Source: Escherichia coli
Lineage (GTDB): Bacteria; Pseudomonadota; Gammaproteobacteria; Enterobacterales; Enterobacteriaceae
Strand: one strand, 5' to 3'
DNA: 64,000 nucleotides
Assembly (NCBI RefSeq): GCF_002854065.1
Contig: NZ_CP024147.1
Of the stretch, positions 42,152 through 42,976 are shown one piece after another; position 1 is the stretch's first letter, and each line of letters opens with the position of its first letter. Position numbers and translations under genes: made by a program. The notes under the pieces were generated by a model. That model made no database searches. It saw nothing but the letters and a program-made list of their open reading frames with translations, and had not been told where the DNA came from.

Positions 42152-42976
42152 ATGACCGAATTTACAACTCTTCTTCAGCAAGGAAACGCCTGGTTCTTCA
42201 TCCCCAGCGCCATCTTACTTGGTGCGCTTCATGGCCTGGAACCAGGGCACTCAAAAACGATGATGGCGGCGTTTATCATCGCCATCAAAGGCACCATTAA
42301 ACAAGCGGTGATGCTCGGACTGGCAGCAACTATTTCGCATACCGCAGTGGTCTGGTTAATTGCCTTTGGCGGGATGGTGATCAGCAAGCGCTTTACTGCT
42401 CAATCAGCAGAACCGTGGCTCCAGCTGATTTCCGCAGTGATCATTATTAGCACCGCGTTCTGGATGTTCTGGCGTACCTGGCGCGGCGAACGCAACTGGC
42501 TGGAGAATATGCACGGGCATGATTATGAGCATCATCATCACGATCACGAACATCACCACGACCATGGACATCATCACCATCACGAACATGGCGAGTATCA
42601 GGATGCCCATGCACGAGCCCATGCCAATGACATTAAACGACGCTTTGATGGTAGAGAGGTCACCAACTGGCAAATTTTGTTATTTGGCTTAACCGGTGGC
42701 CTTATCCCCTGCCCGGCAGCAATTACCGTGCTGTTGATATGCATTCAGTTGAAAGCCCTGACACTGGGCGCAACACTGGTCGTCAGTTTCAGCATTGGCC
42801 TGGCGTTAACGCCTGTCACCGTAGGCGTTGGCGCAGCAATCAGCGTTCAGCAGGTCGCAAAACGCTGGAGCGGATTTAACACTCTCGCTAAACGCGCCCC
42901 CTATTTTTCCAGTCTGTTGATTGGCTTAGTCGGTGTGTATATGGGCGTACATGGCTTCATGGGCATAATGCGATAA
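42152..42976 (+). CDS. rcnA: Nickel/cobalt efflux transporter RcnA
   Basis: 274-aa membrane ORF with a His-rich loop (HGHDYEHHHHDHEHHHDHGHHHHHEHGE). Confidence 0.9.
   Translation: MTEFTTLLQQGNAWFFIPSAILLGALHGLEPGHSKTMMAAFIIAIKGTIKQAVMLGLAATISHTAVVWLIAFGGMVISKRFTAQSAEPWLQLISAVIIISTAFWMFWRTWRGERNWLENMHGHDYEHHHHDHEHHHDHGHHHHHEHGEYQDAHARAHANDIKRRFDGREVTNWQILLFGLTGGLIPCPAAITVLLICIQLKALTLGATLVVSFSIGLALTPVTVGVGAAISVQQVAKRWSGFNTLAKRAPYFSSLLIGLVGVYMGVHGFMGIMR

Follow-up and report, generated by a model that had tools for sequence, protein, structure and literature searches.

The histidine-rich loop of the nickel/cobalt efflux protein RcnA and its in-frame length variation in Escherichia coli

Histidine-rich loops in RcnA and related transporters

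RcnA of Escherichia coli K-12 (YohM, b2106) was reportedly described as a nickel/cobalt efflux protein by Rodrigue et al. in 2005. A histidine-rich loop is a textbook feature of this protein, and strains of Salmonella (STTR5) and Klebsiella are already typed by the length polymorphism of the loop. For E. coli, the loop has been described as 67 amino acids long with 17 histidines (PMC11247825). The RcnA proteins of cable bacteria belong to the same family and share the predicted cytoplasmic, central histidine-rich loop, which in those organisms measures 100-123 amino acids and carries 33-53 histidines (PMC11247825); the whole loop of the E. coli protein analyzed here has 66-67 amino acids and 19 histidines.

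The length polymorphism is used in two bacterial typing schemes. In Salmonella Typhimurium, the MLVA locus STTR5 is a 6-bp CACGAC VNTR in yohM (that is, rcnA), located between the two domains of the protein (PMC5183578, PMC1781188). STTR5 alleles cluster in the middle of their range, which the authors read as functional constraint (PMC5183578), and a deletion of (HD)9 at residue 123 has arisen during in vivo passage in chickens (PMC6760104). In Klebsiella pneumoniae, MLVA locus 27 is a CATGGT repeat within rcnA that is present in 0-19 repeats (PMC3948817).

Outside this family, the cytosolic His-loop of human ZnT7 is mostly disordered and binds about two zinc ions. Its His164 enters the transport cavity, where there is exchange with His240, and the loop thus delivers zinc to the transmembrane site; when all loop histidines are removed by His-to-Ser replacement, both affinity and transport fall (PMC10409766). 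The His-loops of CDF/ZnT proteins (in human ZnT7, between TM4 and TM5) and of ZIP proteins appear to resemble the RcnA loop in being flexible, cytosolic, located between transmembrane helices and able to bind several ions. RcnA has neither the Cation_efflux transmembrane domain nor the cytosolic C-terminal domain of CDF/ZnT proteins; it is not a CDF protein, and the ZnT7 analogy therefore speaks to how the loop may work and not to family membership.

The locus analyzed here lies in a 64,000-nucleotide stretch of E. coli DNA (hereafter, the window). Its loop is that of K-12: over the 241 nt that surround it, the window shows 100% identity to the K-12 strains AG100, DH5a, DH10B and C600, and the two loci alike contain rcnR, two operators, rcnA and rcnB. 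The window and K-12 proteins are distinguished by one nonsynonymous difference, L219P at nt 42813, which is outside the loop. For the K-12 protein, Ni(II)/Co(II) efflux activity and a resistance phenotype are known from the literature. Like STTR5, the E. coli loop region is in the same gene, falls between the membrane domains (aa 123 in Salmonella, aa 121-148 here), encodes a His-Asp repeat and changes its copy number in frame; E. coli O157:H7 alleles even carry a (GACCAC)n run that is equivalent to STTR5, with single-unit differences. The window allele itself is unlike STTR5, having a degenerate 18-bp repeat (76% matches) and a length common to about 87% of complete E. coli genomes. Since it has no pure run and shares its length with so many genomes, it is probably far less mutable than STTR5.

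Klebsiella locus 27 is likewise a hexanucleotide VNTR that lies in the orthologous gene and codes for part of its His-rich loop, but it belongs to another species and its unit encodes His-Gly rather than the His-Asp/Glu of E. coli. When we searched the literature for MLVA loci in the yohM/rcnA gene of E. coli, we retrieved the Salmonella and Klebsiella schemes only, with no paper typing by the E. coli locus, and we therefore do not claim a typing use for it. The loop, its histidine richness and its length polymorphism are all already known, and the finding described here is real and ordinary.

The rcnA gene of the window and the anatomy of its loop

The preliminary description had named the gene rcnA, and this identification holds. 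The product matches the Pfam NicO family (PF03824; E=5e-70, 236.4 bits against a cutoff of 27.7, residues 13-273) and the NCBIfam model NF007454 'nickel/cobalt efflux transporter' (555.8 bits against a cutoff of 195, residues 1-274). It contains the conserved polar membrane motifs of the NicO family, H-x-L-E-P-G-H-x-K in TM1 and G-G-x-x-P-C-P in TM4. The nucleotide sequence of the gene equals that annotated as rcnA in E. coli strain 100416 (100% identity) and, over its entire length, is 99.9% identical to that of K-12-like strains and K-12 derivatives; rcnA was found in 5,365 of 5,426 complete E. coli genomes, with the annotation agreeing in these 5,365.

The genomic context is the canonical one, with the order rcnR-rcnA-rcnB and RcnR operators between the divergent genes (Table 1). 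The two tandem operators are separated by 5 bp and match exactly the published TACT-G6-N-AGTA consensus, two copies of which have been described in the rcnR-rcnA intergenic region (PMC7055735). An Rfam scan of positions 41400-43200 returned the thiM TPP riboswitch as its sole match, and none within the loop.

Table 1. Features of the rcnA locus and of its loop (positions are those of the window)
Feature	Position	Strand	Basis
TPP riboswitch upstream of thiM, between thiM and rcnR	41571-41667	-	Rfam RF00059, 71 bits
rcnR, divergent Ni/Co-responsive repressor of rcnA	41759..42031	-	Pfam Trns_repr_metal E=3.5e-21; annotation in matching genomes
RcnR operator site TACTGGGGGGTAGTA, rcnR-rcnA intergenic	42080-42094		read from sequence
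RcnR operator site TACTGGGGGGGAGTA, rcnR-rcnA intergenic	42100-42114		read from sequence
rcnA (yohM), 274 aa, nickel/cobalt efflux protein, NicO family	42152..42976	+	ORF list, Pfam, NCBIfam, nt identity
Entire loop between TM3 and TM4 (residues 108-174), predicted to be cytoplasmic	42473..42673	+	hydropathy, K/R counts, AlphaFold flanking helices
His-rich low-complexity core HGHDYEHHHHDHEHHHDHGHHHHHEHGE, residues 121-148, length-variable part	42512..42595	+	indel positions; pLDDT 49-61, coil
Degenerate tandem repeat, 18 bp x 3.2 copies, consensus CATCATCACGATCACGAA (HHHDHE)	42533..42589	+	Tandem Repeats Finder, 76% matches, score 79
Conserved C-terminal loop part DAHARAHANDIKRRF, residues 151-165	42602..42646	+	allele and family alignments; model helix 152-165
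rcnB, periplasmic accessory protein of the RcnA efflux system	43195..43533	+	Pfam RcnB E=7e-19; strain 100416 annotation

Several features of the neighborhood were noted in passing. Between positions 41229 and 43313, which include rcnR and rcnA, the window differs from a K-12-like strain at one position only (42813), whereas dozens of differences are found in the flanks, yegU-thiM (36207-41228) and rcnB (43314-43407); this contrast in divergence suggests that the rcnRA region is mosaic or has been recombined. Directly downstream of rcnB there is an IS1 element (transposase ORFs at 43779-44476; region 43615-44476), at the site that the yehABCD fimbrial operon and yehE occupy in K-12. Of yehA, no more than 153 nt of the 3' end are left (43615-43767), and apbC (mrp) follows. 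Strain 100416 has the same arrangement of IS1 and yehA remnant, with 6 differing positions relative to the window over 12.8 kb, and by the annotation of this near-identical strain a second IS1 copy lies at about 48035-48732, just after metG and followed by a truncated SWIM zinc-finger gene. The presence of two IS1 copies within 5 kb suggests an IS1-rich genome that is losing genes.

Within RcnA, the preliminary description had pointed to an extended stretch rich in His, Asp and Glu, and we were able to confirm it, with the peptide HGHDYEHHHHDHEHHHDHGHHHHHEHGE standing in the translation exactly as it had been written. These 28 residues comprise 17 His, 4 Glu, 3 Asp, 3 Gly and 1 Tyr. At least 17 histidines in 28 residues are expected by chance with a probability of about 2e-21 (binomial tail, with a His background of 2.3% that is an assumed typical proteome figure), and when the 64-kb window was scanned in all six frames, this proved to be the most His-dense 28-aa stretch, the next unrelated one having 9 His. 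The interval originally given for the feature, 42476-42640, is in frame and corresponds to residues 109-163 (TWRGERNWLENM...ANDIKR), thus bracketing the core slightly more widely. The complete TM3-TM4 loop holds 19 His, 13 D/E and 8 K/R.

C-terminal to the variable core, the loop has a second, conserved part. The segment DAHARAHANDIKRRF is predicted to be helical, with His153 and His157 spaced i, i+4, and the tail E-Y-Q-D-A-H-A-R-A-H-A-N-D-I-K-R-R-F is invariant across eight aligned E. coli alleles. A consensus of this tail, DAHxxAHAxxIxxRF, is still recognizable in distant homologs (in a 33-sequence family alignment and in many representatives).

In repeat register, the core reads HHHDHE / HHHDHG / HHHHHE. 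The longest exact internal direct repeat found by a direct-repeat scan is of 11 bp (ATCACGAACAT, at 42543 and 42579), and the window allele is therefore best described as a degenerate repeat without a pure hexanucleotide run, while O157:H7 alleles contain pure (GACCAC)4-5 runs. Three other open reading frames overlap the region and were rejected. Two of them are on the minus strand (42404..42673, 89 aa, 'MVVVMFVIVMMM...', and 42447..42614) and mirror the CAT/CAC codons of the well-supported plus-strand gene as ATG/GTG; the third, in the +2 frame (42519..42692, 'MIMSIIITITNITTT'), overlaps rcnA, for which the plus-strand support is overwhelming.

To describe the surroundings of the loop, we used an AlphaFold model of RcnA that was built on the 33-sequence family alignment (mean pLDDT 81.7, pTM 0.70). 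The model has a 3+3 helix membrane core, with helices at residues 13-46 (broken), 49-77 and 83-121, then the loop, and then helices at 172-199 (broken), 203-238 and 242-273; this organization, of six TM helices in two groups of three around a central loop, agrees with the hydropathy peaks. TM3 is modeled as a long helix that ends at residue 121. It is followed by a coil of low confidence (residues 122-151, pLDDT 49-61) and by a short helix (152-165), and the helix that flanks the loop on its C-terminal side spans 172-182. The breaks fall at H27-G-L-E-P-G-H33 in TM1 and at G-G-L-I-P-C187-P in TM4. In the 33-sequence family alignment, conservation is at least 90% at H27, L29, E30, P31, G32, H33 and K35, and G183, P186 and C187 are invariant.

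With the TM boundaries of the UniProt entry, 15 K/R fall in the three loops proposed to be cytoplasmic, as compared to 4 on the opposite side; under the positive-inside rule, these counts and the K/R-rich flanks of the His-rich loop predict a cytoplasmic location for it. DeepTMHMM has given the same topology for RcnA (PMC11247825). The K/R distribution and the DeepTMHMM result agree with the cytoplasmic location that the preliminary description had given, and the AlphaFold model predicts the TM3-TM4 loop to be disordered. In a sequence search of the PDB, all matches were to His-tags and His-rich tails (CbiX and tagged constructs), and none was to a structure of the NicO family.

Outside the loop, the single protein difference from K-12 deserves mention. 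Residue 219 of the window RcnA, within the predicted TM5, is Pro (C at nt 42813) versus Leu (T) in the K-12-like strain. Leu is found in all seven other aligned E. coli alleles, and Pro219 occurs in 1 of 110 close relatives with a locatable motif. Such a helix-breaking substitution could impair the transporter.

Length variation of the loop among E. coli strains

The preliminary description had also proposed that the length of the segment varies between strains by repeat slippage, a claim that the complete E. coli genomes bear out. In an evenly spaced sample of rcnA matches from these genomes, the gene was 804, 825, 840, 846, 849 or 852 bp long. When the 241-nt loop region was used as a query, 51 of 59 systematically sampled genomes had exactly the length of the window allele, and the other eight deviated from it by -21, -15, +6, +15, +24, +27, +27 and +33 nt. 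Over the full set, 671 of 5,363 genomes fell below 95% identity to the loop query, as expected of indel alleles. A non-standard loop length is accordingly carried by about 13% of the complete E. coli genomes (about 5,361), with about 87% having the same length as the window. All length differences are multiples of 3 nt, and the samples contained in-frame alleles only.

The variation is confined to the His-rich core. In protein and DNA alignments of eight alleles, all indels fall within residues 121-148, in addition to a DNE insertion directly after G147, and RcnA outside the loop is nearly invariant. Among the closest 120 proteins of our protein search, the loop could be delimited in 116 (where the source was named, nearly all were E. 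coli or Shigella), and these contained 41 distinct loops with cores of 27-53 aa and indels in the loop only. The shortest E. coli core, of 20 aa, was seen in one genome.

The variants form series of units, namely (Asp-His)3, 4, 5 and 6, an extra HHH, an extra HHHDHE or HHQDHE, and 17-aa duplications. The clearest case is that of two O157:H7 strains (L004 and L005), which show 0 mismatches over 1,446 bp and have as their sole difference one GACCAC (Asp-His) unit. Slippage-type length variation at the rcnA loop is demonstrated by these alleles. The window (K-12-type) allele is apparently comparatively stable, since 51 of 59 genomes keep its length and its longest perfect repeat is of 11 bp, and it is apparently the alleles with pure hexanucleotide runs that vary fast. 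With cores of 20-53 aa, the alleles of E. coli would also offer a ready-made panel for comparing loop-length phenotypes.

A different kind of change was seen in E. coli strain 81EVA (NZ_CP138397.1, 3276385-3276518), where the loop query is matched from its position 108 (window 42547) onward and the match borders directly on a gene annotated as an IS3-family transposase. In this strain, rcnA therefore seems to be broken within the sequence that encodes the His-loop.

Possible functions of the loop

To place the loop in its family, we searched 1.84 billion representative proteins and retrieved 2,568 RcnA relatives at E<=1e-10; the statistics given here are for the 57 full-length representatives among the best 150 of these 2,568. 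Their TM3-TM4 loops are of 32-268 aa (median 74) and contain 2-58 His (median 17), amounting to about 22% of loop residues. Except for the DAHxxAH tail, the loop sequences cannot be aligned, and yet at least 7 loop histidines are found in 54 of the 57. Since His-richness is conserved without a conserved sequence or length, this pattern argues that composition, that is, His-richness itself, is under selection. Three representatives (P0253, P0183 and P0149) have only 2-3 His in their loops, and the His-rich stretch is therefore not indispensable for the fold.

The reading that we favor, at a probability of about 60%, is that the loop is a cytoplasmic, disordered His/acidic linker that captures Ni/Co and hands the ion to the membrane site, encoded by a coding VNTR under slippage. 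Such a linker would join the two three-helix halves of RcnA, an RcnR-regulated Ni(II)/Co(II) efflux protein, and its imidazoles and carboxylates would provide several weak, fast-exchanging Ni/Co sites, which would concentrate the metal locally where the transporter opens to the cytoplasm. The ion would then pass to the conserved membrane site composed of H27-x-x-E30-P-G-H33 (broken TM1) and G-G-x-x-P-C187-P (broken TM4), much as the ZnT7 His-loop does for zinc. On the DNA side, in-frame CAY/GAY-rich units (6, 9, 15, 18 and 51 nt) would be gained and lost by replication slippage; the coding sequence would tolerate these changes because function would depend on composition and not on exact sequence, so that the loop would behave as a coding VNTR. 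Capture and hand-off are plausible by analogy, and the family-wide retention of His-richness, despite an unconserved sequence and length, supports the capture step. In the searchable literature, we found no experiment on the RcnA loop itself, and the natural range of 20-53 aa in E. coli could equally well reflect nearly neutral length.

Three other explanations have to be weighed against capture and hand-off. The loop might be a regulatory or sensing element, in which metal bound to the His cluster gates or throttles transport (an autoinhibition relieved or imposed) and thereby sets the threshold of Ni/Co efflux. Its place is exactly between the two structural repeats, which have to shift against one another, and in the plant CDF protein AtMTP1 deletion of the His-loop reportedly raised transport rather than lowering it, which we count in favor of gating. 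The natural alleles, however, differ more than 2-fold in length without obvious loss of the gene, a range hard to square with a precisely tuned gate. Excess zinc may immobilize the ZnT7 His-loop away from the transport site (PMC10409766), as gating would have it, but in the present system metal is already sensed through transcriptional control by RcnR, acting at the operators upstream of rcnA (PMC7055735). We regard gating as unlikely. Still less probable, and the least so of all the readings discussed here, is a cytoplasmic metal sponge that would provide part of the resistance by sequestering Ni/Co at the membrane, independently of transport. The 17-19 loop histidines per RcnA molecule would suit such a role, but stoichiometric binding by a low-abundance membrane protein would buffer very little metal, and the TM core with its conserved polar motifs is strongly conserved. 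The rcnA mutant studied by Rodrigue et al. in 2005 reportedly accumulates more Ni/Co, which points to efflux and against a sponge. The idea itself has been put forward for E. coli RcnA, whose roles as exporter and as chelator (via the loop) were left as alternatives, in a study that also proposed a link to nickel handling for the loop expansion to 33-53 His in cable bacteria (PMC11247825).

The third explanation holds that the His-rich composition is dispensable, the loop being a tolerated linker whose length drifts neutrally since CAY/GAY-rich DNA is slippage-prone. The length range is indeed very wide, both within E. coli and across the family, a few homologs have almost no loop His, and the repeat structure accounts for the variation without selection. 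Against this stands the count of at least 7 loop His in 54 of 57 full-length representatives whose sequences are unalignable: since His is ordinarily uncommon, its enrichment has been maintained or re-created repeatedly. The sampled alleles are moreover in frame only, and the mid-range clustering of STTR5 was read as functional constraint in Salmonella (PMC5183578). As with gating, we consider a dispensable composition improbable. Loop length might be an evolvable tuning knob, with slippage alleles of 20-53 residues in E. coli, including the (Asp-His)n series of O157:H7, setting different Ni/Co efflux capacities or thresholds and lineages so fitting rcnA to the metal load of their niche. If true, the rcnA loop would be a contingency-type locus and not a neutral VNTR; we find this doubtful, slightly more so than gating.

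The family search also revealed a subset of RcnA homologs (P0121, P0123, P0134, P0131, P0137, P0146 and others) in which the TM3-TM4 loop contains a conserved insert of about 110 aa with His-rich flanks; one of these homologs is 73% identical to E. coli RcnA. The insert matches no Pfam family and has the motifs IDTGHG..ELS.FE..PP.(W/F)RL...YLES...PEPH.F...GH.GH.H.YD. Judging from these motifs, it may be a folded metal-binding domain.
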